A DNA stretch of 64,000 bases from Dehalococcoidia bacterium (GCA_965248955.1 OZ252212.1:959042-1023041), one strand, 5' to 3'; shown: positions 3,156-32,245, counted from the stretch's first letter. A program made the numbers and translations. Notes: generated by a model not told the origin, from the letters alone.

Positions 3156-3343
3156 GTTGATGTACCTCCTTACAAGTTCCAAGAGATGTTGCTGTACAAA
3201 CTACTTTGCGATACAATCATATCCTCGGGACACGGGGAGAGTCAACACGGATGACGTCGGGGCTTCAAGTCATTCAAATTGATTAGTAGAGCAAATTAAA
3301 CCGCTAGATCCCGAACCGAGCACTGGAAGGCAGGAGGTGCTGC

Positions 3344-3979
3344 ATGCAAAGATCGGACAGCGAGAATACCGCGCTCACACCACAGGAGAGCTGGCGAACG
3401 ATCCACGAGTCGATGGACAGATCCCGGAGCTCCATGTATGTCGCCGGGTCAGCGACGATATTGCTTTTATGGGCCTCTATTGTAGCGGTGGGATCCGGAT
3501 CTCAGTACGCCATCATAACGCTGGCATCCGAGTTCGCCGATCGCAACCCATGGATCTTCGGGGCACTATGGGGGGTCCTGATGGTGCCGGGCATGGTCGG
3601 GAGCGCGATCATAGGACGCCGCGCCGGCAGGAAGATCGCAGCCGGCGACGCCGCTCGCAGCGCTGGCATTCGGGTGTTCCTCTACTGGCTCGCAGTGGTT
3701 GTGGCGGTGTTCCTCATCCCGGCGGCAGCGGGAATGTGGAATGCCGAAGCCGGGGACAACATACCGGGCGTCGCCGTGGGCATAGTGTCCCTGGCATACA
3801 TCCTGTTCGGCATCATGCATCGCCCGGTGTTGGCGGCGGTGGGCGCGGGGTTCGCGGCAGCGTTCTACATTCCCAACTACCTCGTGGACGGCAACGAGGC
3901 TATGTTGGTGTCGGGGGCATTGATGCTGGTAGTGGTGGTCCTAGGTGCGTGGTGGATACGCACGAGCGGGGTCCATTGA
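3344..3979 (+). CDS. Hypothetical integral membrane protein
   Basis: 211-aa ORF with about five hydrophobic helices. It overlaps the start of the downstream wHTH regulator. Confidence 0.55.
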   Translation: MQRSDSENTALTPQESWRTIHESMDRSRSSMYVAGSATILLLWASIVAVGSGSQYAIITLASEFADRNPWIFGALWGVLMVPGMVGSAIIGRRAGRKIAAGDAARSAGIRVFLYWLAVVVAVFLIPAAAGMWNAEAGDNIPGVAVGIVSLAYILFGIMHRPVLAAVGAGFAAAFYIPNYLVDGNEAMLVSGALMLVVVVLGAWWIRTSGVH

Positions 3980-4290
3980 CCGACGAACCCATCGTCCTCG
4001 ACGAGACCATTCATCAGTCCACTCGGCTGCGAATAATGACTATGCTGGTCTCCCAGCCGGAAACGGGCCGGCTCGCCTACGGGTTCGTTCAGAAGACTCT
4101 CGACCTGACCGGGGGAAACCTGACCACCCACCTGCGCAAGCTTGAAGACGCCGGCTATCTGGTCATCACGAAAGAGTTCCAGGACTTGAAGCCGCGCACG
4201 TGGCTTAAGGCGACACCGATGGGACGCCGCGCATTCGCCGAATACCTCTCCAACCTGGAGAAGGCCCTGAGCTGGCAGCCTTGGGCATAG
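3949..4290 (+). CDS. Winged-helix transcriptional regulator (ArsR/MarR-like)
   Basis: The C-terminal ~113 aa of the 3337..4290 frame read as a wHTH: STRLRIMTMLV...LTGGNLTTHLRKLEDAGYLVITKE. A GTG start is available at 3949 or 3952. The upstream part of that frame is a shadow of the membrane protein ORF. Confidence 0.7.
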   Translation: MVDTHERGPLTDEPIVLDETIHQSTRLRIMTMLVSQPETGRLAYGFVQKTLDLTGGNLTTHLRKLEDAGYLVITKEFQDLKPRTWLKATPMGRRAFAEYLSNLEKALSWQPWA

Positions 4291-4315: not shown

Positions 4316-4452
4316 GACTCCACCTGAGAAGGTTCGAACCGCTGATCAAAGCCCAGACTGCATACTAGTTGTCGATCCGCGTATACTTGGCTGCCGCATC
4401 CAAATCGACCGCCCACGAGTACCGCAGTTTTTCGTTGCGATCAATTCGTTAA
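4316..4452 (-). repeat. Dispersed repeat family, copy 1 (long form, ~135 nt)
   Basis: Plus strand reads ccacctgagaaggttcgaacc ... gtcgatccgc-loop-gcatccaaatcgac cgcccacgagtaccgcagtttttcg. A 37-nt stretch is identical to copy 2 in inverted orientation. It lies directly 3' of the agmatinase-family stop codon. Confidence 0.85.
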
Positions 4453-4469: not shown

Positions 4470-5474
4470 CTACACCTTGACCGTGTCAAACAGCCAGGGA
4501 TGCAGGATCTTGAGCAGACCTGAGGCAGCAATCTTAACTGTCTGTGCAGAAGAGTCCCACTCGGGAGATACCTCGCAGAGATCAATCGCTCCCATAGCCT
4601 TGTAAAGGCTCAACATATCCATGGCCTCGAAGAACTCCGGCACGGTGATACCGCCAAACTCAGGGGCGCCGGTTCCCGGCGATTCATGGGCGTCTATCAC
4701 GTCGATATCAATGCTCACGTACACCGCGTCTACCCCGTCTGCCGCCACGTCCATGGCTTCCTTCATAACTTCGGCTATTCCTCTTTCACGGACACTCTTC
4801 GCCGTGAGCATCTTCAAGGAATGTTCCCTCTTTAGGCGGTGTTGGTCTATGGTTAACCCAGAATTGAGGCCGACCCAACTCAGGTTCTTATACGAGACTA
4901 TAGGATTCTCGCTTACGCGTCGCACCATTGTCCCGTGGTGGTATCGGCCTCCCAAAGAGTTGCCATCCTGAAAATCGGAATGCGCATCGATGTGGATGTA
5001 GCCGAGGCGTGCTCCTTCCGTTCTCTCGGCGATGCCTTTGGCGAATCCCTCAAAGGAGGGATAAGCAACGTAGTGGTCTCCTCCCATTACCACCGAAAAG
5101 CCGCCTCGTCTTACGACCTCGTACACTCCCTCCTTAACCGACTCCGTTGTCTTCATCAGGTCTGTGGGGTAGATGTTGAAATCACCAATATCCGCTATCA
5201 TGGGCAGGTTCTTGAGGTGGGTTCCAACCCCAGTATCCACATCCACTCGCGTGTTTTCCGGTGAAACGTCATAGCCTGCTCTGTTGTGCAGGGATGCCTC
5301 TCGAATGGACCTGGGGCCAAACCGGGCTCCAGGTCTTCCTGAGTATATCCCGTTGTCGATAGGCACCCCCGACACCACGGCAGTACCCTCAACGATTTCG
5401 TCGAACTCGACTTGGGGCGCTCGAAAGAAGGAGACGGGGCCCCCGTAATATGGCATGGCATCTCTCTCGTACAT
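4470..5474 (-). CDS. Agmatinase/arginase-family ureohydrolase
   Basis: 334-aa ORF with the Mn-binding motifs GGDH, IHIDAHSD and SIDIDVID. Confidence 0.85.
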   Translation of the reverse strand: MYERDAMPYYGGPVSFFRAPQVEFDEIVEGTAVVSGVPIDNGIYSGRPGARFGPRSIREASLHNRAGYDVSPENTRVDVDTGVGTHLKNLPMIADIGDFNIYPTDLMKTTESVKEGVYEVVRRGGFSVVMGGDHYVAYPSFEGFAKGIAERTEGARLGYIHIDAHSDFQDGNSLGGRYHHGTMVRRVSENPIVSYKNLSWVGLNSGLTIDQHRLKREHSLKMLTAKSVRERGIAEVMKEAMDVAADGVDAVYVSIDIDVIDAHESPGTGAPEFGGITVPEFFEAMDMLSLYKAMGAIDLCEVSPEWDSSAQTVKIAASGLLKILHPWLFDTVKV

Positions 5475-10492: not shown

Positions 10493-10704
10493 CTGCGATT
10501 ATCCCACCCGGGCTTCCCAAGCTCGGGCCTGACCTCAAATGGGACCGGCGCAATGCCCTCAACGGGTATTGGTTCACGTGGATTCCTGCTGCGACCTGGC
10601 CACTCCTCGTTGCTACAATGGCATTGCAAGCTATAAAGTGGTTCTGTCTACCGTCAAAATAGGCCCACCCAACTGGACAAAATCAAGAACCTTCATCCGT
10701 CAGG

Positions 10705-10835
10705 CACAATCGACACAAAAAACTGCGGTACTCGTGGGCGGTCGATTTGGATGCAATCAGGTAATGTTAGGGGATCGACGAATGGTTGTGACACCTCGGC
10801 CCTAATCACCCGTTCGAGCCTTCTCCAGTGGGTTG
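10705..10835 (+). repeat. Dispersed repeat family, copy 2 (long form, inverted relative to copy 1)
   Basis: cacaatcgacacaaaaaactgcggtactcgtgggcggtcgatttggatgc-loop-ggatcgac...cccgttcgagccttctccagtgg. It has the same architecture as copy 1, with a different hairpin loop. Confidence 0.85.
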
Positions 10836-10916
10836 GCCTGGGACGGCCTTCTCCGAGCAGGTGAGCCCCTGCTCAGAGAAGAGATCGAAAGCTGATCAGA
10901 GCGTCCTCATCCCCCA

Positions 10917-11161
10917 TCAGTGAGTAACCGTCATCGCGCCTCCAAGGGTCTCGCCACGATGCTCCGGACGATAGTACGAATAGACCTGGGAGACGACCTC
11001 TTTGGCCCGGACCGGGTACTTGGCCCGCGCCTGGAACCCGAATGAGACCGTCTCGCCCGGCATCATGTCCTCGATGTAGAGGATCACCTTCCGACCCGCG
11101 ATTTCGAATCGCTTGAGGCTCGCGGCCGTCATCGACAGAGCGCGCACTATCGCCCCAGACG
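10917..11161 (-). pseudogene. C-terminal fragment of a bacterial alpha-2-macroglobulin-family gene
   Basis: LKRFEIAGRKVILYIEDMMPGETVSFGFQARAKYPVRAKEVVSQVYSYYRPEHRGE matches the receptor-binding-type C-terminal domain. No upstream domains are present. Confidence 0.55.
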
Positions 11162-11585
11162 CCCGCAGCTTCGCAGTTCGAGTGACAAGGGTTCGGTGAC
11201 GGCACGGCTGGCAATTGCAATGTCGTATGCCAGACGAATCCCGCCAAGCCGGAAAGACCGATATGTGTGCTCCGGTCAGCAGGAAGGTTGTCAGGTAAGT
11301 CCGGTCACGATCTGTCCCGACACCACCCTCGCACACCTGTGAGGGAACGTTTTCTTGGCTCGAAACGTATTATCAAGTATGGGCTCGTTCGAAGGTGTCA
11401 AGAAGTCGCCGCAGTGGGTGCAGAGGAACATCGCGATGGGCTTCGTTGCTATCGGGGAACTTTTCCCTGTTCCGGTGCGTCTTACTCGTTGCAGGCTCAC
11501 ATTTTGGGCGGGACAATAAATGACGCACCAGGACGAGGCCATCCAGAGGCATTGCGATTCCAGATAGAGGAAGACGGTTTACACG

Positions 11586-12563
11586 ATGAGGCTTCACAGC
11601 AGAGCTTTAGGATTGAGAGGGCGCTTGGGGGTTCTAAAGCTTGGCATCGCTGGAGGACTACTGGTCCTCTTGATGGTAGTCACAGTCGGGTGCGACGACT
11701 CCCAGCCTGAGACGGCGAATCAACCCACCATTTCGTCACCTGGATCAACAGGTGATCCTGTGGGCAAGCCACCCCTCCCTGACCTCGACAAGCTCGTCAT
11801 GTCCTCCGACATCTCCATCATCGGCCGGGTCAAGGTCGTATCCGAACTCCAGACAGTCTCCCGTCGCGACCGTCCCGTGGACCGGGTGACCTACTACGAT
11901 GCCACCGTAGGGGTTGACCACATGCTGTTCGGTCGAGGACCCAACGAAGTCGATATCCGGGTTCCCGTCCGATATCTGACGGACGACGATCGGCATACTC
12001 CGGTACAGGCCCCGTCGCTGGAGGTGGGTGAGACGGTCCTGCTGTTCCTGACCCAGGACGATTCCTCTTTCGACCTAAGGGGCAACAGCTTCGTGATCGC
12101 CGGGGGCGGCGAAGCATGGGGGAAGCTCTTCGTTAGGGACGGACGCGTGACGACGCTGGATCCAGCAGTGGAGTCGAAGCCACTGGATGAGGTGACAGAG
12201 TGGGTCGACGCGTCCCGCCTCTCACTGGCCAAGCCCGGCCTACTGGCCGGAGAGACGTCCGGCCTCGATGGTGGAGACCGCGCAACCGTCCGTCTGCTCT
12301 ACCTTGGCAGCAGCCTCCGGGAGGAGGACGGCGTCCCGGTGGACGAGTGGACGGTGGGAAACGGACCATGGGAGCGACGTGGTCTGCGACTCTCGGAAGG
12401 GACCTACCACCTGGTCGCCGAGGCCGAGGGCTACCTTCCTGCCGGCAGTCTGATGTTCCAGGTGCCCGCCGAGGGGATGGACTGGAGAGAGAGGAACCTG
12501 GGTATTGGCCTCTTCCGACCCAGAGATGCGGACGACAAGCCCCGCGCCACCGGTATAGGCTGA
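11586..12563 (+). CDS. Hypothetical lipoprotein
   Basis: 325-aa ORF with a signal peptide and lipobox VTVGC. I recognised no domain. Confidence 0.55.
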   Translation: MRLHSRALGLRGRLGVLKLGIAGGLLVLLMVVTVGCDDSQPETANQPTISSPGSTGDPVGKPPLPDLDKLVMSSDISIIGRVKVVSELQTVSRRDRPVDRVTYYDATVGVDHMLFGRGPNEVDIRVPVRYLTDDDRHTPVQAPSLEVGETVLLFLTQDDSSFDLRGNSFVIAGGGEAWGKLFVRDGRVTTLDPAVESKPLDEVTEWVDASRLSLAKPGLLAGETSGLDGGDRATVRLLYLGSSLREEDGVPVDEWTVGNGPWERRGLRLSEGTYHLVAEAEGYLPAGSLMFQVPAEGMDWRERNLGIGLFRPRDADDKPRATGIG

Positions 12564-12668
12564 CGTCCTGAGCGGAGCGTCCGGGGACGGATCGTCGGCA
12601 TACCGGATGGGGTTGATGCCCGAGTCCGGATCCAACGCCTGCCGCCGGCGCCAAACGAGGTTTATGCC

Positions 12669-13844
12669 ATGGGTCCAACTCTGCCGAAGGATACTCAGTT
12701 CTATTTCCCTCCCGAGCTCACCTGCCTGGAGGGGATAGGCCATCTGGAGCCTGAAGAAACGGTGGCAGCGGTGGAGGTACATAACGGACGGTGGGGGTTG
12801 TCCGGCCACTCTCTGCAGGGTAACCGTTACCTCATCACCATTGAGGCGCCCGGTCTCCGTCTCGAGCCTGCGGGCTACGTGGCCGTGGTCTTCTCGAGCA
12901 AGACCCGCCATCGAGTGCGGGGCGTCGACTTCTATATTGGCGACGCGGAGGCGCCAGACTGCGATACTAGCCCAGGGGTTGTGGAACCTGCCGCCCGCGA
13001 GGCGCTGAGGAACATGGCCAAGGACCCCATGGCCCGTATTGCGGAGCAAGTCCCCGGATTTGGCGGGGCCTTTCGGGATTCGGACCAGAAGGTCGTGTAC
13101 ATCTACCTTCAGGATGCCTCCCTGAAAGAGGAGGCGGAGCGCGCTCTAGAGGAGGAGTTTGGCTCCGATTTCCTCGCGGGCCGCGAGGTCCAGGTCCTGA
13201 AGGGCGACTACAGCATGGACCACCTGAATGCTTGGTATAGGGCTCTGAGTGGTGCCATATCTCAGGTCCCAGGCATCGTGTACACCGACCTGGACGAGGG
13301 GAAGAACCGCATCGAGATCGTCATGTACCCACGGCGCGGGGGGCGCGAGGAGATGGAGGCTGCCATAGCGACGGTGGACGTCCCAAGGGGAGCCATCCTC
13401 ATCGAGGTCGGATGTGAGGGCAAATGGCCCCGTGACCTTGGGGAGCCTCCGGAGGAGGCGTTCCTCCAGGCCATCGAATACTCGCTGGAGGTGGTGTCCC
13501 AGGCCCCTTACGGAGAGACGGTGGAGATGAAGCTAACCTTGCGGAACGTCAGTGATGGGCCGGTGAGCTTTTATCTCGGGGGGTCGCCCGCCTATGACTT
13601 CGTGGTCTCGACGGCTGACGAAGAGTTGGTATGGCACTGGAAGTGCGCCAAGTTGACCCTCTTGATGCTGGGTATCAAGACCCTGGAACCTGGTGAAGAG
13701 TTGGGATTCGTTGGTGAGTGGGAACAGATAGACAACCGGGGGGAGCCCGTTCCCCCTGGCACATACCTGTTGCGTGCTGTGTTGAATTTGGAATCGCCGG
13801 AGAAGCTCGTAACCGAGGTCCAGAAGGTGGAGGTGGTCCAGTGA
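12669..13844 (+). CDS. Hypothetical protein with C-terminal BsuPI-like (protease-inhibitor fold) domain
   Basis: The C-terminal ~100 aa (LTLRNVSDGPVSFYLGGSPAYDFVV...LEPGEE...PPGTYLL) fit the BsuPI pattern. The N-terminal start is uncertain. Confidence 0.55.
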   Translation: MGPTLPKDTQFYFPPELTCLEGIGHLEPEETVAAVEVHNGRWGLSGHSLQGNRYLITIEAPGLRLEPAGYVAVVFSSKTRHRVRGVDFYIGDAEAPDCDTSPGVVEPAAREALRNMAKDPMARIAEQVPGFGGAFRDSDQKVVYIYLQDASLKEEAERALEEEFGSDFLAGREVQVLKGDYSMDHLNAWYRALSGAISQVPGIVYTDLDEGKNRIEIVMYPRRGGREEMEAAIATVDVPRGAILIEVGCEGKWPRDLGEPPEEAFLQAIEYSLEVVSQAPYGETVEMKLTLRNVSDGPVSFYLGGSPAYDFVVSTADEELVWHWKCAKLTLLMLGIKTLEPGEELGFVGEWEQIDNRGEPVPPGTYLLRAVLNLESPEKLVTEVQKVEVVQ

Positions 13845-14029
13845 GATGCATCGTCCTCATTGGGCCGCTGGCCATTCTCCTGTTCCTCGTGGCTGCCTGC
13901 TCCAATGGGACGCCATCGGCTCCTGATGCACCGCCGCCTTCGGAAGAGGCCACGCCAACGGTCGCGCCGACCTCGACGGTCATCTCAGGTCCACCAGACT
14001 GGATTCGAACCGTGGCTTCGACTGGTTAG
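13841..14029 (+). pseudogene. Truncated lipoprotein gene (signal peptide plus ~40 aa only)
   Basis: The GTG start overlaps the upstream stop (GTGA). Signal peptide with lipobox LFLVAAC is followed by a short TP-rich stretch. The frame then runs straight into repeat copy 3 (ccaccagactggattcgaacc) and terminates. Confidence 0.4.
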
Positions 14030-14181
14030 GCGCGCCTGCCTTACCGCGGCCGGAGGCTGGCTCCCGTGGACTCTTAGTCAATGGTGCCGTCCGCCGGGGG
14101 GGTGCTTCCTACTACGTACTGGCGTCAGTCCCACCAACTATGAGTAGCGCAGTTTTACGTGTCTTTTGTGTATTGTGAATG
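13988..14181 (-). repeat. Dispersed repeat family, copy 3 (long, diverged, ~190 nt)
   Basis: Outer box ccaccagactggattcgaacc and inner core cccaccaactatgagtagcgcagttttacgtgtcttttgtgtattgtgaatg. The right flank matches copy 11. Confidence 0.7.
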
Positions 14182-14200
14182 TTTTAAATGTGGTGCTGGC

Positions 14201-14228
14201 TTTACTGCAGAGTTTTCGTTGCGATTAC
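14201..14228 (-). repeat. Dispersed repeat family, copy 3b (core-only fragment)
   Basis: tttactgcagagttttcgttgcgatta matches the copy 1 core and flank ccgcagtttttcgttgcgatca. Confidence 0.5.
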
Positions 14229-14239
14229 TTCTTCGCTAT

Positions 14240-14352
14240 GCAGACTCCCCCTTACATCACAAACCGACTGGCTGGGAGATTCAGCTTCATTTCTACCCGA
14301 AATCTTCAGATCGACCGTCCAAGAGTAGCTCAGTTTATTGTGTCGATTGAGA
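14240..14352 (-). repeat. Dispersed repeat family, copy 4
   Basis: aaccgactggct...atcttcagatcgaccgtccaagagtagctcagtttattgtgtcgattgagaaatgggg. The right flank gtcgattgagaaatggggatggtgtat is shared with copies 7 and 10, next to a recombinase 3' remnant. Confidence 0.7.
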
Positions 14353-14629
14353 AATGGGGATGGTGTATCTTGGCCTCTTCATCCACTGGTGAAAGTAGGC
14401 TTTTTCAGCCACCTGCTGATGGCCGTGTGATTGGCCAGCCTCTTATTCACATCATACGTGCTTGGCCCCGATTCTGGCGAGTGAGATAGGAACGCCAAAC
14501 CGATAGGGAAGGGACCGACGTGTCGGCGACTCGATGGTCCCCTATGAGGGGGTGCTTCTATAGTCTGCAATACGGTACGTGTAGGCACAAACCCCCGCCA
14601 GTATCTTGCACTCTCATCCTGCAGATAAG

Positions 14630-20697: not shown

Positions 20698-21093
20698 TTG
20701 GCAAGTTGGCGAAGCTCTCTTGTGATGGCGGGGTTGACTGCGGCGGGCTGTAGCCTATTTGAACAGGACCGGGAGCCTTCTCCGGCTCCGACGGATGTAC
20801 CTACGCCACAGCTCACAGCTGATGTGCAGGGAGAGACCACACCCGAATCTGCGGAGGGGCTGGCTCTTCCTCGTGCAGCTCAGTATCAGTTCGTGGCCTT
20901 AGTGCCCGTCAGCGTTGGAGGAGCGCGCAAAACGTACCGAGACTTAGGGTGCACGCGATGCTCCAATGTGCTAGCAGATAGCCCATACCAAGAGTTTGTG
21001 CTAATTGGCGACCGCCTCTATGACGAGAGAAAGCCGCATGCCGAACGTGAGTTGGGAATATGGAGGGCAATTTGTATAAGGCGGCGCACATGA
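20698..21093 (+). CDS. Small hypothetical lipoprotein
   Basis: Lipobox LTAAGC. Its stop overlaps the ATG of the downstream giant gene (ATGA at 21090-21093), which suggests translational coupling. Confidence 0.5.
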   Translation: MASWRSSLVMAGLTAAGCSLFEQDREPSPAPTDVPTPQLTADVQGETTPESAEGLALPRAAQYQFVALVPVSVGGARKTYRDLGCTRCSNVLADSPYQEFVLIGDRLYDERKPHAERELGIWRAICIRRRT

Positions 21094-24000
21094 CACGATG
21101 GTTGGCTTACGGGATATTGACCGTTGCGCTCGCATGTCTTCTTGGGGGCTGCAACGGGGACTCAGGCGCACCTGAGCCAACCCCTACCGGAGCTGAGTCG
21201 AGGGGGCTCACGGCCACGACGGAACCGAGCTCCACACTGACGCCAGAACCAACCCCCACGGTGGAACCAACTCCCACACCGACGCCAGAACCAACCCCCA
21301 CGGTGGAACCAACTCCCACACCGACGCCAGAACCAACCCCCACGCCTACTCCAGAGCCTACGCTCAAACCCATCGATCCGAATCTATCCATCCTGGACCA
21401 GTTCCCAGCGATAGAGCGTAGCTGTCTGTTACTCGATATGGAAGAGAACCGCTTGTACCGGATCTTCAACCAGGAATCCAGTGCGACGGCCGAAGAATTC
21501 GAGGCCATAGCAGGTTGCATAAGCAGGGACACCGTGACCGCCATGTATATCGGTGCGCTTGCGGAGGGGTTGAGTGTGAGCGGCGAGACGTCGGCCTGTG
21601 CGGTGGGCCGACTGGAGAAGATGGACAAGGACCTCCTAATGCTAGCGTCGATAAACTCCGAGCATGAAACCGCGGTTTACCTTGGCCTTGGTTATGACGA
21701 TGAGGCGCTGCAAGACTTGGGGGCGTCTATTTCGTTGTCTGTGCTCCTCTGCATGGACAAGGAAGAGTGGACGGCCCTCAGCCCATGGGGTCTCAATGTC
21801 GATGATGTGAGCATAGATGCACTCAGATGCTTCCTGAACGAATTGGGGCCGCGGGGCCTCTACGAGTTGGATGCTGCTACCGAGGGCGCAACGCCATCGC
21901 TTGAGCTGTTCTCAGCGGCGGGGAGTTGCGGGATAGACCTGGAGTCGTTGCTGTCAAAACAAACGAGGCCAGAACCCGCACCGACGGTGAGGCCAGCAGT
22001 TCCCGTGCCAACCGCAACCCCCGTGCCGACGGCTGCACCACAGAGGGAACCCGAGGCGACTCCCACCGCAGCGCCAGCGGCTACGGCAGTACCAGAGCCC
22101 ACAGCTGCTCCGACCGCCACTCCAACGGACACGCCCGAGCCGACTCCTACGGACACGCCTACGCCCGCCGCAGTTGATAGGGCCGCGCTGGTGGCGCTCT
22201 ACGAAGCGACGGACGGAGCTAACTGGACGAGCAACCACAACTGGCTGAGCGACAGGCCAATCGGAGAATGGCGCGGCGTAATCGCTGACCTCAGCGGGCG
22301 CGTCACCGAGCTGCTCCTCTCTGAGAACCAGTTGAGCGGCGAGATACCGGCCGAGTTGGGCAACCTCGCCAACCTTCAATACCTGTTCCTCTCTAAGAAC
22401 CAGTTGAGCGGCGAGATACCGGCCGAGCTGGGCAACCTCGCCAACCTTCAATACCTGTTCCTCTCTAAGAACCAGTTGAGCGGCGAGATACCGGCCGAGC
22501 TGGGCAACCTCGCCAACCTTCAATACCTGTTCCTCTCTAAGAACCAGTTGAGCGGCGAGATACCGGCCGAGCTGGGCAACCTCGCCAACCTTCATTCCCT
22601 GCTCCTCTCTGAGAACCAGTTGACCAGGTGCCTACCCGAAGGGTTGCGAGAGATACAGGAAAGTGATTTCAACATCATGTCCATTCGTCCGCCCTTGTGC
22701 GGAACAACCCCGGCGAGCATGATCGCGGCGGGCGGCACAATCGCAGTCCTCCAGTCTCTTGAGTCACTGTCGGGCGCTCATCGGAGAGATGGCACAGAGT
22801 TTGAGTGGTCGCAGGTGTCGGGTCCGCCCGTTGAACTCCTCAATGCGAATGCTGAGTATGCTCGGTTCACGGCCCCGGTGGTCGTTGAAGACACCATCTT
22901 GGTGTTTGTGCTGAAAGCCGAATATCAGAACGACGTCACGGTGATCGATACTGTGCCGATACGCGTCGTTCCCATGAGAACGGAGAGGGTGTTGGCTGCT
23001 TTGGTGGACTTTCTTGACGTGGACCCCAGAGAAAGACCCTTCACCAGAGAAGATATCGTCAAGCTCCTTGAGGCTAATGACGATTCATTGAGCAATTTCA
23101 TTGCTCAGACCTCGCGCAATTTGGTGAGCGTTGACTTTGACGTCCTGGACTGGATCACTGTCGACAAGAACAGGACGGACTACCCGTTAGGTGGTGGCAC
23201 CGTGGTGAAGGACGTCGTCAGCAGGATGTCCGACTTTGCCGACTTGAGTCAGTATGACAAGGTGATGCCGTTAATCTTTCCTCTCGAAAAAGGATATCCC
23301 GGATGCCAGGCTTACCTGTATAAGGACCACTGGAACACGCCAAACGGCCGCTTCCGATTGGGTGCCTTGTGGCTGAGCGGCTATGACATGGGTTGTGTAC
23401 GAAAAGGTAGGATTGCACACGAGTTTGGACACACATTCGCGTTCGTACACTCATATGTGATTCTCTGCCACAGAGAGCCGCCCTTGCCGGCGAGCATGAC
23501 TGACCCCACTGACAAGAACAGCTCCTGCTATACCGTATATGCCGGGGAGAAAGAGGAAGCTAGCATTATCGCCAACCAAGACTTTGACATGCTGGGCGGC
23601 GACCATCGATACGAGAGCTTCTTTCCGGTTCACTTCCACGCAACATGGCAGGATCGAGCCGGATGGTTGGCCGAGGCCCAGGTCGTTGCTGCGAACAGCG
23701 CCGGCGAGTACTGGCTCACCGCTTTGGAATCCCTTACTCCCACACCGAAGGCTGTGAGGATATTCTTGGGAACCGATCACGAGGGAAACTCCCTATACTA
23801 TCTGATCCAACATCGTGAGTTCAGCCCGTGGTCCATGGGTAGCCAGGCGGGGTCTTCGTGCCAAGCCGATGTGAGGCTTGAAGCCTCCAACATATTTAAG
23901 CGTGGGCAATTCAATACTTACTTTTTCAATGGGTATATCGATGGCGTGAGAGTGGATTCCATATCACGCCCGGGTAAGCCGTTATGGGACCCTTACCGTG

Positions 24001-24425
24001 GCATTCGTATCGAAATACTTGACTGCATAGATACTCCAATAGGTGAGGTTGTCAGGATGCAAGTCAACTTTTCCAAACTGGATATTGACCCGCGGGTAGT
24101 CGCCATTTTCGATACTGCCGGAAAAGCGACGATAAAGATGACAAACAACGGCAGCGTACCGATTGACGTTGGCTCTGCCTCGATCGGGGGCAGACATCCG
24201 ACCGCATTTGTCGTTGATTCTGACGAATGCAGTGATTCCACACTGAAATCGAAAGCATCGTGCGAGATCATCCTGTCGCATGTCCCAACCGACACTGAGG
24301 ACGATGAACCCAGCAATCACGGTGTGTTGAAGATCCCGAACAATGACGCATTGGCACCCGAGATGACGGTGAGTCTATTTGCGGCGAATGCAAACCGATC
24401 ACAGCTTCCGCCGACCCGGAAGTGA
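21090..24425 (+). CDS. Large surface lipoprotein: Thr/Pro repeats, leucine-rich repeats, C-terminal HExxH metalloprotease-like domain
   Basis: Signal peptide with lipobox LLGGC and EPTPTVEPTPTPTP tandem repeats. NQLSGEIPAELGNLANLQYLFLSK occurs four times (plant-type LRR). IAHEFGHTFAF lies in the C-terminal region. I placed the start at ATG 21090; the ORF track uses 21060. Confidence 0.85.
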   Translation: MTRWLAYGILTVALACLLGGCNGDSGAPEPTPTGAESRGLTATTEPSSTLTPEPTPTVEPTPTPTPEPTPTVEPTPTPTPEPTPTPTPEPTLKPIDPNLSILDQFPAIERSCLLLDMEENRLYRIFNQESSATAEEFEAIAGCISRDTVTAMYIGALAEGLSVSGETSACAVGRLEKMDKDLLMLASINSEHETAVYLGLGYDDEALQDLGASISLSVLLCMDKEEWTALSPWGLNVDDVSIDALRCFLNELGPRGLYELDAATEGATPSLELFSAAGSCGIDLESLLSKQTRPEPAPTVRPAVPVPTATPVPTAAPQREPEATPTAAPAATAVPEPTAAPTATPTDTPEPTPTDTPTPAAVDRAALVALYEATDGANWTSNHNWLSDRPIGEWRGVIADLSGRVTELLLSENQLSGEIPAELGNLANLQYLFLSKNQLSGEIPAELGNLANLQYLFLSKNQLSGEIPAELGNLANLQYLFLSKNQLSGEIPAELGNLANLHSLLLSENQLTRCLPEGLREIQESDFNIMSIRPPLCGTTPASMIAAGGTIAVLQSLESLSGAHRRDGTEFEWSQVSGPPVELLNANAEYARFTAPVVVEDTILVFVLKAEYQNDVTVIDTVPIRVVPMRTERVLAALVDFLDVDPRERPFTREDIVKLLEANDDSLSNFIAQTSRNLVSVDFDVLDWITVDKNRTDYPLGGGTVVKDVVSRMSDFADLSQYDKVMPLIFPLEKGYPGCQAYLYKDHWNTPNGRFRLGALWLSGYDMGCVRKGRIAHEFGHTFAFVHSYVILCHREPPLPASMTDPTDKNSSCYTVYAGEKEEASIIANQDFDMLGGDHRYESFFPVHFHATWQDRAGWLAEAQVVAANSAGEYWLTALESLTPTPKAVRIFLGTDHEGNSLYYLIQHREFSPWSMGSQAGSSCQADVRLEASNIFKRGQFNTYFFNGYIDGVRVDSISRPGKPLWDPYRGIRIEILDCIDTPIGEVVRMQVNFSKLDIDPRVVAIFDTAGKATIKMTNNGSVPIDVGSASIGGRHPTAFVVDSDECSDSTLKSKASCEIILSHVPTDTEDDEPSNHGVLKIPNNDALAPEMTVSLFAANANRSQLPPTRK
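21243..21345 (+). repeat. 42-bp tandem repeat (about 2.4 copies) encoding PEPTPTVEPTPTPT
   Basis: ccagaaccaacccccacggtggaaccaactcccacaccgacg is repeated identically at 21243 and 21285, and a partial third copy follows. Confidence 0.9.
22317..22604 (+). repeat. 72-bp tandem repeat, 4 copies (LRR units)
   Basis: Units start at 22317, 22389, 22461 and 22533. Units 2 and 3 are identical over 72/72 nt. Units 1 and 4 differ at a few positions. Confidence 0.95.
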
Positions 24426-24812: not shown

Positions 24813-25244
24813 GCCGAGTTCATGGCCGAGGAGCCGGTGAAGCCCAAGGGCCGGAGCCGCAATGGAGGCGTCTTTGCTCGAACTCCATGTCGCTGTGGCC
24901 ACTACGAGCCCTCCAACCCTGGCGGGCTGGAGGCTCGTGGGCCAAGCCGGGTACTGTGTGACTCGCGCCTGTTTTGTTACAGCGAGACCTCCCATCGAAA
25001 AGTTCGCAGTACAGTACACGTAGGCCCGCCAAGGAAGGCTCGAACCATCATGCGGTCCGACGTTGAGGTGGATTACCGGACATCGTGAAGAATGAGATGT
25101 TCTAGGGGCTCGACTGGAATCGGGTGTTACAGAGGCATGGAGCGTAGCGAGCACTAAGACCGACGGTATTGCCCTCACAGCGGTTGTATCGCTAGCCGTG
25201 ACCTTCACTTGCCCAAGGCTCTAGCGCTACCCATCGCTAGCTAC

Positions 25245-25285
25245 GCTCACCGCCCACGAGTACCGCATTTTCTGTTTCTATTGCC
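25245..25285 (-). repeat. Dispersed repeat family, copy 5 (core; long form about 25024-25290)
   Basis: ctcaccgcccacgagtaccgcattttctgtttctattgcc. It is preceded by a long-range stem (gagcgtagc...gctacgctc) and an outer box ccaaggaaggctcgaacc at about 25030. Confidence 0.75.
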
Positions 25286-25530
25286 TCTCACCCATGAGCA
25301 GTGGAGAGTAACATACGTGCGCATTGCGGGAGGAAGGCTGTGCTGGGGCAGCAAGCTGGATGGTCATGAAGCCTCGCCCGGAGAGGATTATAAGTTCACG
25401 TCCGTCAGCAGCAGCCGCTCTCACGGGTGCGTTTTGCGGGACGATGGCGCGGTCCAGTGTTGGCGATGGCCATAAACGAGGGAGCTGGAGTCGCTCTGGT
25501 TGGACCATGACATCGACAACGGTATTCAAG

Positions 25531-25570
25531 TTCACCGCCCACGAGCACCGCAATCTTCTGTGTCGTTGCC
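25531..25570 (-). repeat. Dispersed repeat family, copy 6 (core)
   Basis: ttcaccgcccacgagcaccgcaatcttctgtgtcgttgcc. Confidence 0.7.
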
Positions 25571-25783
25571 CTCAACACCGGATACCGGGTGGGCGGCGAC
25601 ACCGAGCGGACACGATTACCAGCGCTACCCACGCCGTAGACGAACTGGTGCGCAACACGTCTTATGAGTTCCGCGTGAGCGCATACGCGGACGGCGACAC
25701 CTACAAAGACGAGTAGGGTGGCGCAGAGGTATCCGCAACGACCGGAGTCTGAAGCTAAGCCCTAGAGAAGCGACTCTGCCCAT

Positions 25784-26007
25784 TCAGGGAATTAGCCGCC
25801 AACTCCAGTTCCACCACTCCCAGCGGCATCCAAGTCCACCGCCCAAGAGTACCTCAGTTTTTGTAGTCGATTGAGAAATGGGGATGGTGTATGTCAGAAC
25901 GGCCTCTTCTCCCACCACTTCGATGCCCTCCACGAAGTTGCGGATGAGCGCCTTGTGCTCAGGGAATGTCCCTTCCTTTAGAAACTCACGGAAGTCCGCC
26001 ACGTACC
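25784..26007 (-). pseudogene. C-terminal fragment of a large serine recombinase gene (copy A)
   Basis: YVADFREFLKEGTFPEHKALIRNFVEGIEVVGEEAVLTYTIP is the typical extreme C-terminus of large serine recombinases. No catalytic or zinc-ribbon part is present. Confidence 0.55.
25826..25875 (-). repeat. Dispersed repeat family, copy 7 (core)
   Basis: gcatccaagtccaccgcccaagagtacctcagtttttgtagtcgattgag. It overlaps the 3' tail of the recombinase fragment ORF. Confidence 0.75.
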
Positions 26008-26022
26008 TATTCACTAGTGGTG

Positions 26023-26332
26023 GAGCGTCCTGAGTGTGTTGGTGAAAGGATCCAGCACCTGTGTTTGGACAAGGGGTACGACAATCCACCGGGCCATGGT
26101 GGCTCACGGGTACCTGGGACACGTCCGGCGCATAGGGGAGGAGAAACTGGACTCTCAGAGTGTGAAGCGCCATCCGGCGCGGCGGTGGGTTGTGGAGTGC
26201 ACCTTGGCCTGGTTATCCAAATGCCGGGCCATATTGGTGCGCTACGACAAGAGGGTATCCAACTACATCGGCCTGATTCAATTGGCGTGTGCCCTTTTCT
26301 GGTACCGCCGCCAGTGGCAACTGAAGTGTTGA
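26023..26332 (+). mobile_element. 3' fragment of an IS5-family DDE transposase gene, frameshifted
   Basis: HLCLDKGYDNP in one frame is followed by GYLGHVRRIGEEKL...ARRWVVECTLAWLSKCRAILVRYDKRVSNYIGLIQLACALFWYRR in the next. It starts exactly where direct repeat A ends. Confidence 0.75.
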
Positions 26333-26341
26333 GATAGTATT

Positions 26342-27376
26342 TTAGTTCGTAGCAGGACGCCCAGAGACGTCCACCTGGCCGTAGATATCCTCTAGGGCCG
26401 CAAATATCTCGGCTTGAATGCCATCTGCGCCTTCACTGTACAGGTCTTTGGGCCCGCCTATCTCGTTGTTCACCCCCAGGTAAGACTGCGACATCTCAGC
26501 AAAGAACTCCCGTCCGCCTTCCACCCTCATTCCAAATGCGTTCGGCCATAACCCGGCTTCCCGGGCCCTGCCATACAGCCCCAGCCACACTTGGCGAGTC
26601 TCATCATCGAATCCAAGGTTCTCAATGGCGTGGGCCCATTCGTGCACGGTAATATCCTCCGCCCAGAAACGGGTCTGGTCTTCAACCAAATCAAGCAGAT
26701 TTTCCTCTGAGGTCACGGTGGTGGTTTGCTCCGGAACGCCGCCTGCTCCCCGCACCCTGAACGAGTCGTACGGATTGCCGTTGAGGTCCAGCCTCCCTCG
26801 AAGGAACGCCAATTCCGGGATTTCGGTGATATAGCCGTCCTTGGGGATTATTGCCAGTGAGGCTCCCGCTTCCGCCATCCGCTGGGCGATGTCCGGCCGG
26901 TGGGACAGCATTGTGCGGACGATGTCGGCAGCGACCTCCAAGGCCTCTGGCGCCACCGCCCCGGAGGCCTTGACCCGAATGCCATCCACATCTACAACCT
27001 GTGTGTAGTACTGCCCAGGAGTAGCCGTAGGCGCGGAAGCAGGCGTGGGAGTTGGAGTGACAGTCGGAGTCGGTGTTGCCGTAGCTGTAGGGTCAGGAGT
27101 GTTGGTTGGTGTAGGTGTTGCAGTAGGCGTAGGAGTAGGAGTAACAGTTGGCGTCGGTGTTGCCGTAGCTGTAGGGTCAGGAGTGTTGGTTGGTGTAGGT
27201 GTTGCAGTAGGCGTAAGAGAAGAAGGAAGAGATGCAGGTATAGTTAGAGTTACGTCAGGTGTCGGTACAGGGACTTCAGACTCCCTACTTTGGTAACAGG
27301 CAGCCGATGCTGCTAACGCGAGCAGTGCTAGCGCAGTGTTCCTTATCCCAGCTCCGCTCAACCAGCGGGGGTTCAT
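26342..27376 (-). CDS. Secreted lipoprotein with Thr/Pro linker and HExxH zinc-metallopeptidase-like domain
   Basis: I placed the start at MNPRWLSG. Lipobox ASAAC, a duplicated TP-rich linker, and VHEWAHAIEN in the C-terminal domain. Confidence 0.7.
   Translation of the reverse strand: MNPRWLSGAGIRNTALALLALAASAACYQSRESEVPVPTPDVTLTIPASLPSSLTPTATPTPTNTPDPTATATPTPTVTPTPTPTATPTPTNTPDPTATATPTPTVTPTPTPASAPTATPGQYYTQVVDVDGIRVKASGAVAPEALEVAADIVRTMLSHRPDIAQRMAEAGASLAIIPKDGYITEIPELAFLRGRLDLNGNPYDSFRVRGAGGVPEQTTTVTSEENLLDLVEDQTRFWAEDITVHEWAHAIENLGFDDETRQVWLGLYGRAREAGLWPNAFGMRVEGGREFFAEMSQSYLGVNNEIGGPKDLYSEGADGIQAEIFAALEDIYGQVDVSGRPATN
27045..27220. repeat. 84-bp tandem duplication inside the Thr/Pro linker coding region
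   Basis: gtcggtgttgccgtagctgtagggtcaggagtgttggttggtgtaggtgttgcagtaggcgta occurs at 27069 and again at 27153. Confidence 0.85.
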
Positions 27377-27484
27377 TTTTACCTCGTATAAAACTAAGGT
27401 CACGTCCCATAGAGTGGTGTAAGAGTACGTCATCCTGTTGATATCGTCTAGGCCGCTGCCTCTGCGAGTTCAGCTCTGGGTAGA

Positions 27485-28374
27485 GGAGCGTAGCGAGCAC
27501 TAAGACCGACGGTATTGCCCTCACAGCGGTTGTATCGCTGGCCGTGACCTTCATGCCCAAGGCCCTAGCGCTACCCATCGCTAGCTACGCTCACCACCCA
27601 CGAGTACCGCATTTTCTGTTTCTATTGCCTCTCACCCATGAGCAGTGGAGAGTACCATACGTGCGCATTGCGGGAGGAAGGCACTGTGCTGTGCTAGGGC
27701 AGCAAGCTGGATGGTCATCAAGCCTCGCCCGGAGAGGATTATAAGTTCACGTCCGTCAGCAGCGGCCGCTCTCACGGGTGCGTTTTGCGGGACGATGACG
27801 CGGTCCAGTGTTGGCGATGGCCATAAACGAGGGAGCAGGAGTCGCTCTGGTTGGACCATGACATCGACAACGGTATTCAAGTTCACCGCCCACGAGCACC
27901 GCAATCTTCTGTGTCGTTGCCCTCAACACCGGATACCGGGTGGGCGGCGACACCGAGCGGACACGATTACCAGCGCTACCCACGCCGTAGACGAACTGGT
28001 GTGCAACACGTCTTATGAGTTCCGCGTGAGCGCATACGCGGACGGCAACACCTACAAAGACGAGTAGGGTGGCGCAGAGGTATCCGCAACGACCGGAGTC
28101 TGAAGCTAAGCCCTAGAGAAGCGACTCTGCCCATTCAGGGGATTAGCCGCCAACTTCAGTTCCACCACTCCCAGCGGCATCCAAGTCCACCGCCCAAGAG
28201 TACCTCAGTTTTTGTAGTCGATTGAGAAATGGGTATGGTGTATGTCAGAACGGCCTCTTCTCCCACCACTTCGATGCCCTCCACGAAGTTGCGGATGAGC
28301 GCCTTGTGCTCAGGGAACGTCCCTTCCTGTAGAAACTCACGGAAGTCCGCCACTTACCTATGCACTAGTAGGTG
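27485..28374. repeat. Direct repeat B (~890 bp), partner of 25139-26022
   Basis: See repeat A. It contains family copies 8-10 (cores at 27590-27629, 27882-27921 and 28177-28226). Confidence 0.9.
28156..28353 (-). pseudogene. C-terminal fragment of a large serine recombinase gene (copy B)
   Basis: MADFREFLQEGTFPEHKALIRNFVEGIEVVGEEAVLTYTIP. A stop codon immediately upstream replaces the Tyr codon seen in copy A. Confidence 0.55.
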
Positions 28375-28499: not shown

Positions 28500-28851
28500 G
28501 GGGGTCGGCGCGCACGCTCTTTCCCATGCCCAATGCCGAGCATGCCGCAATGACGATGGTCAGCAACGTTCGGGTCGGCTGCTATATTCAAGTACCACGC
28601 TGGATGGTAGTCCTAGCCGTAGTTCGAAGCAACGATAATTGGTCGCCTGACTCTTCAAACTGGAAGTACATCAAGGGCGACGACCGCGGCTTGCCGCTCC
28701 TGCGTCCCTTAGTCACCAGGATAAGGATTCTGTGCCCTTCCAAGCGGCTCAGAAGGCGTCCGTTGGAGAGGCGAAACAAGAGCCGATGCACCGGGACGAA
28801 GAACCATGTGATGATGAGGCGTCTATAGGTCAGTACGGCGGGCTCATTCAC
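28500..28851 (-). pseudogene. DUF385 / deazaflavin-dependent nitroreductase-family gene, disrupted
   Basis: ILILVTKGRRSGKPRSSPLMYF is followed, after a frameshift, by IIVASNYG-stop-DYHPAWYLNIAADPNV. There is one frameshift plus an in-frame TAG. Confidence 0.5.
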
Positions 28852-32119: not shown

Positions 32120-32245
32120 ACAATCGACTGGCTCTCCAAGTGGCCACGCCTTCTACTACATCCATTCCAACTGCCCGCGGGTCGACTGTCCATAAACTCC
32201 TGAGTTTTTCGTGTCTATTGTGTATTGCGAACGTTCTACCAGAAC
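32120..32245 (-). repeat. Dispersed repeat family, copy 11
   Basis: caatcgactggct...gggtcgactgtccataaactcctgagtttttcgtgtctattgtgtattgcgaacg. The flank matches copy 3. It sits at the left edge of a low-GC islet. Confidence 0.7.

Follow-up and report, generated by a model that had tools for sequence, protein, structure and literature searches.

A duplicated block of core repeats and recombinase-gene remnants around a protease gene in a Dehalococcoidia genome

The 64,000-nt stretch of Dehalococcoidia DNA analysed in this study (referred to below as the window) contains two direct repeats which enclose a fragment of an IS5 transposase gene and a gene for a predicted secreted protease. Each repeat carries short conserved sequences (cores) at regular intervals, separated by fragments of genes, and a previous reading based on the sequence only had proposed a cassette array. 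The question raised by this locus is whether it represents a functioning cassette system or the remains of some other mobile DNA. We consider, with a probability of roughly 55%, that the repeated block (R) is a remnant left by the recombination end of large serine recombinase (LSR) integrative elements, which was copied once around the IS5-protease segment. The duplication is real, yet it looks like mobile-DNA wreckage rather than a functioning cassette system.

Architecture of the locus

The features of the locus are listed below (window coordinates, strand, description).

24977-25138, minus: degenerate 3' end of an LSR gene, stop plus about 53 codons (reverse-strand translation, tblastn)
25139-26018, plus: repeat copy A, 880 nt, made up of the three-core array (25139-25889) and an antisense LSR stub of 127 nt
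25236-25299, plus: core 1 of copy A (nhmmer E = 1.5e-12)
25300-25475, plus: cassette 1, 5'-truncated RCC1-repeat gene fragment running to a stop codon (Pfam RCC1_2, E = 2.6e-5)
25519-25565, plus: core 2 of copy A, diverged (nhmmer E = 6e-11)
25590-25716, plus: cassette 2, C-terminal FN3-domain gene fragment running to a stop codon (weak fn3)
25819-25889, plus: core 3 of copy A (nhmmer E = 7e-18)
25877-26016, minus: antisense LSR body stub, LSR2 (L095) type
26017-26335, plus: 3' third of an IS5-family transposase gene, pseudogene (Pfam DDE_Tnp_1 / DDE_Tnp_1_2)
26342-27376, minus: predicted lipoprotein zinc metalloprotease, intact ORF (alternative start 27433)
27485-28369, plus: repeat copy B, 885 nt; three cores plus an antisense LSR stub (28228-28367)
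27580-27643, 27870-27916 and 28170-28240, plus: cores of copy B (nhmmer)
28588-28851, minus: context right of copy B, another fragmentary gene, encoding the N-terminal part of an F420H2-dependent quinone reductase (matches positions 8-50 of the 130 in the Pfam profile F420H2_quin_red, E = 1e-6)

Global alignment of the two copies (880 versus 885 nt) gave 97.95% identity over aligned bases, with 860 matches, 18 mismatches and 9 gap columns. The latter correspond to two indels (2 and 7 nt), and the longest identical run extends over 164 nt. A repeat search recovered three in-register pieces with start-to-start spacings of 2346, 2344 and 2351 nt, which corroborates the direct repeats of about 885 bp with a period of about 2346 bp described previously. 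A repeat of such length and identity cannot have arisen by chance. The base composition is uniform across the copies and the segment between them. The duplication is known from one assembly, and searches yielded no second assembly of the strain.

The segment between the copies (S, 26017-27484) is present once and R alone is repeated, which gives the layout R-S-R. A simple tandem duplication repeats a whole unit head to tail and creates one novel end-to-start junction. This explanation was rejected, since S occurs once and the locus contains three junctions instead of one; the earlier term “partial tandem duplication” does not apply in its simple sense.

Within R, the sequence ahead of each core is the 3' end of a truncated gene. 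The RCC1-like fragment recognised previously is cassette 1 (covered by an ORF at 25209-25475). The FN3-like tail was also recovered as cassette 2, though the fn3 match is weak: it covers profile positions 42-72 of 84, and its E-value of 0.006 falls short of the gathering cutoff.

The spacer S opens with the last ~105 codons of an IS5-family transposase gene (DDE_Tnp_1, E = 9e-6), which have lost the 5' part of the gene and contain one frameshift (three-frame translation). A complete insertion sequence of the IS5 family consists of an entire transposase gene bounded by terminal inverted repeats; in a composite transposon, two such copies enclose the cargo. Both were rejected, as only ~105 frameshifted codons are left, in a single copy in the window. 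The fragment had been reported to begin exactly where copy A ends, at 26023; the abutment holds, but comparison with a fuller copy at locus L097 places the first IS5 base at 26017, the bases between 26017 and 26023 being ambiguous microhomology. At this junction CACTA is joined to GTGGTGGAGCG, with a 4-nt microhomology (TAGT) common to both parents. Copy B starts, to the base, at the terminus of the array (GCTACGCTCC), where it departs from copy A, and its left flank is the upstream region of the protease gene, not an LSR tail. The IS5-protease block is 95% identical to that of L097, in which IS5 extends further upstream, and fuller IS5 copies adjoin the protease gene in both L097 and L098.

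The protease gene is intact, as had been claimed. The encoded protein combines a signal peptide, in which the lipobox reads LAASAAC, with a Pro/Thr-rich linker whose coding sequence contains a 42-nt repeat, and a catalytic domain modelled with AF2 pLDDT above 90. The HExxH motif and a Glu downstream of it hardly vary among 37 homologues (H245, E246, H249, E290 and E294 are conserved at 90% or more). Sequence searches of Pfam, NCBIfam and PDB gave no match. In Foldseek the top 29 matches were PPEP-1, PPEP-2 and PPEP-3, and anthrax lethal factor came next; E-values ranged from 3e-5 to 1e-3 and target-normalised TM-scores from 0.6 to 0.7. By its predicted zincin fold and ligand residues, not by sequence profile, the protein is an M34/PPEP-like zinc metalloprotease.

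Cores and recombinase remnants

Each copy of R contains three cores of ~75 nt, spaced by 285 and 304 nt in A and by 292 and 304 nt in B, in line with the earlier estimate of about 290 bp. Core 1 includes the 19-mer ACCGCCCACGAGTACCGCA (25248-25266) and is accompanied by ~95 nt of the left part of the unit, which starts at 25139 with GGAGCGTAGCGAG. A core 21-mer occurs 8 times in the window (0.00 expected in shuffled sequence), and nhmmer detected 10 firm copies there plus one weak match at 32180. The whole family comprises 72 nhmmer matches at E < 1e-5, and every locus with a record title shown belongs to a Dehalococcoidia MAG. A second array of like architecture lies at 13.99-14.39 kb in the window. 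The sequence-only reading had suggested a search for other arrays with ~300-bp spacing, and such arrays do exist, with cores 183-304 nt apart (window 14.1 kb, L049 and L057).

The cores mark discrete boundaries. They match neither Rfam families nor tRNAs; no tRNA, tmRNA or Rfam match was found within or close to them, and none of the core-family copies found has a genuine tRNA within 600 nt. The sole match to a tRNA acceptor end is an 8-mer (GGCCCACC / GGTGGGCC) at the unit edge. Folding of both strands of five cores revealed no shared hairpin (z-scores -2.0 to +1.5), the core consensus has no dyad symmetry, and we found no inverted repeats bounding any unit. The hallmarks of MITEs are terminal inverted repeats and a target-site duplication; a MITE or another IS-derived miniature element was rejected, since bounding inverted repeats are absent and the array inside the LSR gene is flanked by a 2-4 nt (CC)AT repeat only. 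The literature searched contained no description of the core sequence.

The array is embedded in LSR remnants. The tail on its left reads “..MPL-stop-HPIPVEPLEHLILH..RAFLGGPTCTVLRTFRWEVSL-stop” and is of the LSR1 (L055) type: residues 364-407 of L055 match 25138-24980 (tblastn, E = 8.8e-6), and the HSP stops at 25138, one base ahead of R, so that the first codons (“MP”) abut R. On the right, core 3 is fused to the antisense LSR codons “..YTIP” (ATGGGGATGGTGTA), and the stub that follows in copy A (“..YVADFREFLKEGTFPEHKALIRNFVEGIEVVGEEAVLTYTIP”) is 72% identical to residues 458-511 of LSR2 (tblastn, E = 8e-20). Across the stubs the identity to this part of the intact LSR is 72-78%, which confirms the serine recombinase tail noted previously. 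The 0.74-kb array is located exactly between codons P and M of “..YTIP-MP..” in an antisense LSR pseudogene; in an intact gene the junction reads TAC.C.ATCCCC ATG CC. The left tail is of the LSR1 type and the right stub of the LSR2 type, and a single insertion into a single gene is therefore too simple an account of this genome. The sequence-only reading had not placed the array inside the 3' end of an LSR pseudogene, nor had it described the 0.9-kb block as a dispersed module.

Intact LSRs (~544 aa, with Resolvase, Recombinase and Zn_ribbon domains) number thousands across these MAGs. They are located at the ends of elements with Replic_Relax, TrwB, toxin-antitoxin and restriction-modification genes, and the 3' ends of their genes abut tRNA genes. 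No intact recombinase is encoded anywhere within the 64 kb, and the core was not found within 10 kb of two intact LSR elements. At least 13 of the 72 cores abut LSR fragments at recurrent codons, and short YTIP-type stubs are additional to these. LSR-tail relics form 207 protein clusters (128 aa or less), some with a core-encoded extension. Such end relics far outnumber the thousands of LSR genes in these genomes. As the protein collection contains no full-length LSR with a core-encoded C-terminus, the link between the core and LSR activity is circumstantial.

The R block, with the same RCC1-like and FN3-like fragments, was identified in at least five other genomes (89-96% identity), with different flanks in each. 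Identity was 89-95% at L046, L068 and L093 and 95.6% at L102, where the block lies beside a nearly full-length LSR, and L042 is 99.3% identical to positions 27641-28240 of copy B. The cassette content is alike at all of these loci, and the array adjoins LSR1-type bodies in L046 and L093 and an LSR2-type body here and in L102. This conservation in different flanks points to a propagated relic of LSR integrative elements. Copies A and B each have derived substitutions of their own, and L042 is the sister of B. The LSR stub is truncated at the same base in A and B, while L102 runs on past this point, which indicates that an already decayed block was the thing copied.

Origin of the duplication

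According to the reading that we favour, R would be a relic derived from the LSR integrative elements which litter these Dehalococcoidia genomes, and the block, which occurs in unrelated contexts across several genomes, would spread as a unit. We infer that in this genome the block, together with the already truncated 127-nt LSR stub, was copied once, and that the copies came to bracket 1.47 kb from elsewhere, namely the 5'-truncated IS5 pseudogene and the intact gene of the putative secreted M34-like protease. The position of the left end of copy B on the array's own terminus would reflect a site-specific joining event, and the microhomology join between copy A and IS5 may reflect illegitimate recombination. 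One mechanism does not yet cover the exact reuse of the terminus at B, the common truncation point and the microhomology junction.

With no recombinase left in the window, the structure now appears to be passive. Its sole foreseeable activity would be RecA-dependent recombination between A and B, which could delete the IS5-protease segment or, by unequal exchange, amplify it. The longest identical run makes homologous recombination between the copies possible, and the amplification or loss of the protease gene suggested earlier is, judging from the repeat itself, mechanistically possible.

Alternatively, a CIME-like circle composed of one array, the IS5 fragment and, as its cargo, the protease gene might have entered a resident array, either through site-specific recombination involving a core or terminus or through one homologous crossover of the Campbell type. 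This seems rather unlikely. R-S-R is the exact product of single-crossover integration of an R+S circle, the left end of copy B coincides with the array's own terminus, and both this terminus and the right ends of cores form discrete junctions at many loci; moreover, tandem islands bounded by att repeats beside an LSR are known in Dehalococcoides (PMC3146451). However, donor and recipient would both have needed an R truncated at the identical base of the LSR stub, and the variants do not change at any point from a donor-like to a recipient-like half. In addition, the junction of copy A with IS5 resembles an illegitimate microhomology join made within a transposase gene rather than the end of an element, and L097 and L098 carry the protease-IS5 block with no cores near it.

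The cores themselves invite a more far-reaching interpretation. It is improbable, in our opinion, that the ~75-nt core is a fixed terminus or recognition site of an undescribed insertion system, perhaps driven by a serine recombinase, in sponge- or marine-associated Dehalococcoidia. More doubtful still is the proposal that the cores are the termini of such a mobile or recombination system and that the duplication is a by-product of its activity. The system would insert by a fixed end beside an existing core, preferring the CCCC-ATG boundary in the 3' ends of LSR genes, and would build arrays by picking up the 3' end of the upstream gene. It would represent either a counterpart of cassette capture based on a serine recombinase, or a parasite that disables the recombinase of integrative elements, and its activity would have left a mark in the exact reuse of the terminus at copy B. 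The core ends sharply on the right, where diverse truncated genes are joined to it (LSR at five positions, comM, an IS3 transposase, RCC1 and FN3), and the units have a fixed right end and left parts of varying extent. Each cassette runs from a 5'-truncated gene to a stop codon and then into the unit, the array at 13.99-14.39 kb is built alike, and the same array occurs on bodies of both LSR types. On the other hand, the only enzyme candidates linked to the cores are broken LSR genes, no empty counterpart of an occupied site was found, and terminal inverted repeats and hairpins are lacking. The array content is conserved across genomes, not variable, and the distance from ATTG to the junction is 4, 9 or 13 nt, so the cut is not base-exact.

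It is very unlikely that two strain variants of a single R locus, or of two separate R loci, were concatenated by a metagenome assembly into a false R-S-R. Small indels and a divergence of ~2% are commonly seen between co-occurring strains, the proteins of the window are absent from the public gene index, leaving the structure without an independent assembly, and searches for the junctions in metagenome contigs gave no match. Against this, both flanks of S are unique and biologically sensible junctions (the exact array terminus and the 4-nt microhomology), related long-read MAGs contain several copies of R in various contexts, L042 is a separate close relative of copy B, and R and S do not differ in base composition.

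Finally, an integron-like functional array shuffling expressed genes is hardly tenable: the regular spacing, the single orientation of the cores and the adjoining recombinase remnant would fit it, but there is no attC-like palindrome or structure (fold z-scores about 0), no attI and no tyrosine integrase (no Phage_integrase domain was found by Pfam in neighbouring ORFs), the cassettes are gene fragments without starts whose content is identical in five other genomes, and the only recombinase trace is a stub of a truncated serine recombinase pseudogene.

The relic reading is mostly a clarification, in which a supposed cassette system becomes the probable duplicated scar of serine-recombinase integrative elements. 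It also draws attention to the bracketed gene of a predicted secreted Pro-Pro-endopeptidase-like protease, whose copy number could shift by recombination between A and B. The core remains a lineage-specific, strongly conserved 75-nt sequence with sharp junctions to truncated genes, repeatedly at one LSR codon boundary. Were it indeed a recombination site or mobile terminus, it would account for much of the gene-fragment “junk” in these genomes and provide a handle on the target specificity of the very large serine integrase family.

Comparison with known systems

The closest comparison within the same bacterial class is offered by the ssrA islands of Dehalococcoides, integrative mobilizable elements with the LSR DsiB (McMurdie et al. 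2011, PMC3146451). These islands carry a ~540-aa serine recombinase at the element edge beside the att site and integrate at the 3' end of a tRNA-like gene; their att repeats, all in one orientation, are arranged in tandem, and ~85 nt around each repeat show additional conservation, while some units without an integration module are cis-mobilizable elements formed by accretion (PMC3146451). An LSR at the element edge is likewise found here, as the tail and stub flanking the array and as the intact homologues at element ends. Unlike in the islands, the repeats are not recognisable as tRNA or tmRNA 3' ends, and the intervals are 0.2-0.3 kb gene fragments rather than kb-sized islands with cargo or an integration module, only the 1.47-kb S containing a complete gene. 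Furthermore, the array lies inside the 3' end of the recombinase gene itself, all associated recombinase genes are broken, and the block occupies many loci instead of the region downstream of one gene.

Integrons possess an adjacent intI gene for a tyrosine recombinase, with attI and Pc, and their cassettes are complete, mostly promoterless ORFs whose content varies among strains. Their attC sites are imperfect palindromes (R''-L''...L'-R', GTTRRRY) which fold as single strands, and clusters of attC sites without an integrase are termed CALINs. The locus resembles both in its short same-orientation repeats, regular intervals, unrelated coding segments and discrete junctions. It differs from them in the absence of attC palindromes, IntI and attI, and in its 5'-truncated cassettes with content conserved between genomes.

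The predicted protease shares with PPEP-1/Zmp1, PPEP-2, PPEP-3 and anthrax lethal factor (MEROPS M34) the zincin fold, the HExxH motif with a downstream Glu, and secretion. It departs from them in sequence (14-18% identity, outside the Pfam and NCBIfam profiles), in its lipoprotein anchor and in its long Pro/Thr linker.

The repeated block is also comparable with relics of the solo-LTR or att-scar kind that a segmental rearrangement has duplicated, in which short element ends outnumber intact elements, as do the 207 clusters of LSR tails, and provide dispersed homology for rearrangements. What sets the relics described here apart is an extra conserved core and a defined terminus, put to use again at copy B.

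The duplicated block and its junctions

We confirmed that the locus contains a direct repeat, so the observation made in the sequence-only reading stands; the interpretation attached to it survives only in part. A repeat search of the window recovered the repeat as three in-register pieces (start-to-start distances of 2346, 2344 and 2351 nt), and global alignment of the copies gave 860 matched and 18 mismatched positions plus one indel of 2 nt and one of 7 nt, i.e. 97.95% identity over aligned bases, with identical runs of up to 164 nt. Each copy holds three members of the core family (a conserved repeat of ~75 nt), spaced by 285 and 304 nt in copy A and by 292 and 304 nt in copy B.

Features of the locus and of a second array
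25139-26018, copy A of the repeat (R)
26017-27484, unique spacer (S) with an IS5 3' fragment and a lipoprotein metalloprotease gene
27485-28369, copy B of R
25138-24977, minus strand, 3' end of a large serine recombinase (LSR) gene, ~53 last codons, '..MPL*HPIPVEPLEHLILH..RAFLGGPTCTVLRTFRWEVSL*' (translation, tblastn to the LSR of locus L055)
26014-25877, minus strand, LSR body stub '..YVADFREFLKEGTFPEHKALIRNFVEGIEVVGEEAVLTYTIP', 72-78% identical to residues 458-511 of intact LSR
13960-14400, second array: antisense LSR tail remnant (GGTCCACC... = '..ATVRIQSGGP'), then cores at 14120 and 14303

Domain and homology matches agree with the fragment identities proposed from the sequence: cassette 1 of the array is RCC1-like (RCC1_2, E = 2.6e-5), cassette 2 is FN3-like (a weak match, E = 0.006), the serine recombinase tail corresponds to the body stub, the IS5 transposase 3' fragment (DDE_Tnp_1) is frameshifted, and the protease is an intact ORF with a lipobox and an HExxH motif. 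The fragment-rich zone reaches beyond R, since a fragment of an F420H2-dependent quinone reductase gene, covering its N-terminal part (28588-28851), lies just right of copy B.

The LSR stub ends at one and the same base in both copies, and the related locus L102 from another genome runs on past it, which indicates that an already truncated block was copied. Polarisation with outgroups assigned ~11 derived changes to copy A, the 7-nt deletion among them, and ~9 to copy B, four of which are common to locus L042. A Campbell-type hybrid pattern was dropped, because the A/B variants contain no switch point of the kind expected of a recent single crossover between diverged parents.

Divergence between the copies starts exactly at the array terminus: GCTACGCTCC is followed by ATGCC in copy A and in loci L046 and L093, versus TCTACC in copy B. 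Since the chance of a random breakpoint falling within 2 nt of this terminus is ~0.5%, the left junction of copy B looks like the product of a site-specific event. The junction of copy A with IS5, between CACTA and GTGGTGGAGCG, looks illegitimate; the tetranucleotide TAGT is common to the parent carrying R with its right flank (as at copy B) and to the IS5 parent. We could not reduce these junction and truncation facts to a single event. What the evidence best supports is a rearrangement of serine-recombinase element relics around an IS5-protease block, which gave R-S-R.

No intact recombinase is present within the 64-kb window, and R-S-R is therefore passive now. If the two copies recombined by homology, S could be lost or amplified. 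Taken by itself, the duplication is commonplace genomic wreckage. It is known from one assembly: searches of metagenome contigs with the junction and R-end sequences gave no match, and exact-protein look-ups for three window proteins returned no record.

The spacer has its own history. Positions 26015-27067 are 95% identical to locus L097, in which the IS5 gene extends further upstream, and IS5 is also convergent with the protease gene in L098 and L099 (85% protein identity), which indicates that the IS5-protease adjacency is ancestral. No cores were found at these three protease loci. L097 is the closest relative, and homology to it breaks off within the protease's Pro/Thr linker, so that the N-terminal region of the gene differs between genomes; the linker (27027-27230) contains a 42-nt tandem repeat (three overlapping 84-nt copies, 63-88% identical). 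The protease family has ~40 members, with no Pfam or NCBIfam model, and its HExxH motif and a downstream Glu are almost invariant. In an AlphaFold model the catalytic domain reaches pLDDT > 90, and a structure search matched the model first to the Pro-Pro endopeptidases PPEP-1/Zmp1, PPEP-2 and PPEP-3 and next to anthrax lethal factor, with E values from 3e-5 upwards and target-normalised TM-scores of 0.6-0.7. Immediately upstream of the locus (21060-24425) lies the gene of another secreted metalloprotease, unrelated to the first and 1121 aa long, with Pro/Thr-rich linkers, four identical leucine-rich repeats, a PKD-like domain, an HEFGH motif and a weak match to the M6 metalloprotease domain.

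Position of the array within the recombinase gene

The tblastn match to the L055 recombinase begins one base short of copy A, at 25138. Intact LSR genes read ..TAC ACC ATC CCC ATG CC.. at this point; the window reads ..ACC ATC CCC AT, followed by the reverse complement of core 3, the rest of the array up to GCTACGCTCC, and ATG CCT... Comparison of these junctions places the 0.74-kb array exactly between codons P and M of '..YTIP/MP..', with (CC)AT on each side, and the junctions of L046 and L093 are identical to those of the window. A second, two-core array of like architecture occupies 13.99-14.39 kb: its cores are 183 nt apart and are followed by ATGGGGATGGTGTA (antisense YTIP) and an LSR stub of ~12 codons. 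In locus L049, two cores are spaced by 184 nt.

The core family and the recombinases it adjoins

A family 21-mer occurs eight times in the window, against 0.00 expected in shuffled sequence. A profile built from related copies identified ten firm copies (4393+, 10760-, 14120+, 14303+, three in A and three in B) and one weak match at 32180. The core consensus is ..atccAagtCc ACCGCCCACGAGTACCGCA gttTTtngTgtCtATTG, ~10 nt, AtGa; its right end forms a sharp junction, and the left part of the unit is less conserved and variable in length. A distribution scan covering a single genome per species yielded 94 stretches, of which those with conserved flanks all come from records named 'MAG: Dehalococcoidia bacterium', mostly long-read assemblies; the rest are bare 19-mer matches within genes of unrelated bacteria. 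The single match in viral contigs was not recovered as a family member by nhmmer.

Several identities for the core were considered and rejected. It is not coding sequence, as frames differ between copies and indels are present, and a search for terminal inverted repeats found none of those expected of a MITE. The intact LSR genes of L095, L096 and L101 have no upstream core, which removes an LSR promoter or 5' UTR. No dyad symmetry was detected, and neither strand of five cores folded better than shuffled sequence, which speaks against attC-like hairpins. A structured RNA found no support: eight long units, analysed on both strands with RNAalifold, showed weak folding energies and next to no covariation, and the core had no Rfam match, either at the gathering threshold or with the cut-off relaxed to E <= 10. 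A tRNA or pseudo-tRNA origin of the left part of the unit was suggested by the motif GGCTCGAACC and an 8-mer; ARAGORN and Rfam gave no match, the tRNA-like stretch in the window is clearly antisense LSR tail, and none of the core copies found has a genuine tRNA within 600 nt.

In at least 13 of the 72 copies, short YTIP-type stubs not counted, the right end of the core adjoins an LSR fragment, and the junction codons recur (~103, ~143 and ~245 sense; ~354 and ~505 antisense). A protein search with the window stub and its core-encoded extension yielded 207 clusters; the best 120 of the 207 are all of <=128 aa, with no full-length recombinase bearing a core-encoded end among them. The core thus seems tied to broken recombinase genes, and no core was found within 10 kb of the intact LSR genes examined.

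The LSR family is very large (3744 matches at E <= 1e-30 among the candidates scored); its typical members, ~544 aa long, combine Resolvase, Recombinase and Zn_ribbon domains. Two intact LSRs lie at the edge of integrative elements with Replic_Relax, TrwB-like, toxin-antitoxin and restriction-modification genes. The final LSR codons ('YGGP' = TGGTGGGCC) overlap the CCA/acceptor end of a convergent tRNA gene, which implies that the family would integrate at tRNA 3' ends.

tRNA genes overlapped by intact or long LSR genes
L096, 11578-11654, tRNA-Ile (GAT)
L025, 1678-1753, tRNA-Lys (TTT)
L060, 3117-3193, tRNA-Val (TAC)

At L095 (ENA ERZ26166491 contig_1, 11500-13400), two convergent intact LSR genes of different subtypes overlap in their last codons on one 8-mer, GGTGGGCC, and around it the two 3' ends are imperfectly palindromic. 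The arrangement may represent a composite att site or the tail-to-tail integration of two elements.

At 10689-11336 (minus strand), the C-terminal end of an alpha-2-macroglobulin gene (139 aa, A2M_recep) precedes a terminator hairpin, after which comes a long core unit. Fragment and unit recur in L028 and L055, where a 5'-truncated LSR gene lies to the right of the core; the window has only ~30 nt of LSR tail and the 8-mer there. A lone unit (4325-4441) lies in the 180 nt that separate two intact, convergent genes, one for a winged-helix regulator (3337-4290) on the left and one of the arginase family (4470-5474) on the right. A 130-263-nt variant of the unit, with two core-like motifs ~125 nt apart, has at least six copies within a single genome (L012, CBDHDD010000002.1, 4230-4640, and five other loci of that contig). 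Its right end is fixed and its left extent varies; in L012 the right end adjoins a truncated comM/YifB-like gene.

Dispersal of the module and likeness to known systems

The segment spanning the LSR tail, both cassettes and core 3 recurs with 89-95% identity in L046, L068 and L093; outside this ~1 kb the three loci are unrelated to one another and to the window. In L102 the shared part is 670 nt long (95.6% identity), and its LSR is almost full length, continuing far past the A/B end point; L101 shares 260 nt. In L042 the shared segment is precisely that from cassette 1 to core 3 inclusive (99.3% identity to B, 97% to A), flanked by an IS3 transposase fragment and another fragment. The stub beside core 3 is of the LSR1 type (as in L055) in L046, L068 and L093 and of the LSR2 type (as in L095) in the window, L101 and L102, and the window LSR tail on the opposite side of the array is LSR1, a mixture which suggests that different elements recombined at the array point.

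Core arrays, with spacings of 183-304 nt, also occur elsewhere (14.1 kb in the window, L049 and L057). The cassette-array interpretation of the sequence-only reading is not upheld: the constant cassette content argues against an active, shuffling array, and none of the integron criteria tested is satisfied by the structure. Literature searches turned up no account of the core family or of its exact placement at a single codon boundary of this very large recombinase family.

The nearest described system is that of the Dehalococcoides ssrA genomic islands, of which the window structure works like a decayed version. The islands carry a ~540-aa serine integrase at the element edge and occur in tandem, bounded by a tmRNA 3'-end repeat with ~85 nt of extra conservation, and some units lack integration modules (PMC3146451). 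It departs from them, however, in the features that define the ssrA islands: its repeat does not derive from the end of a tRNA or tmRNA gene, gene fragments make up the intervals, and the recombinase gene itself houses the array.
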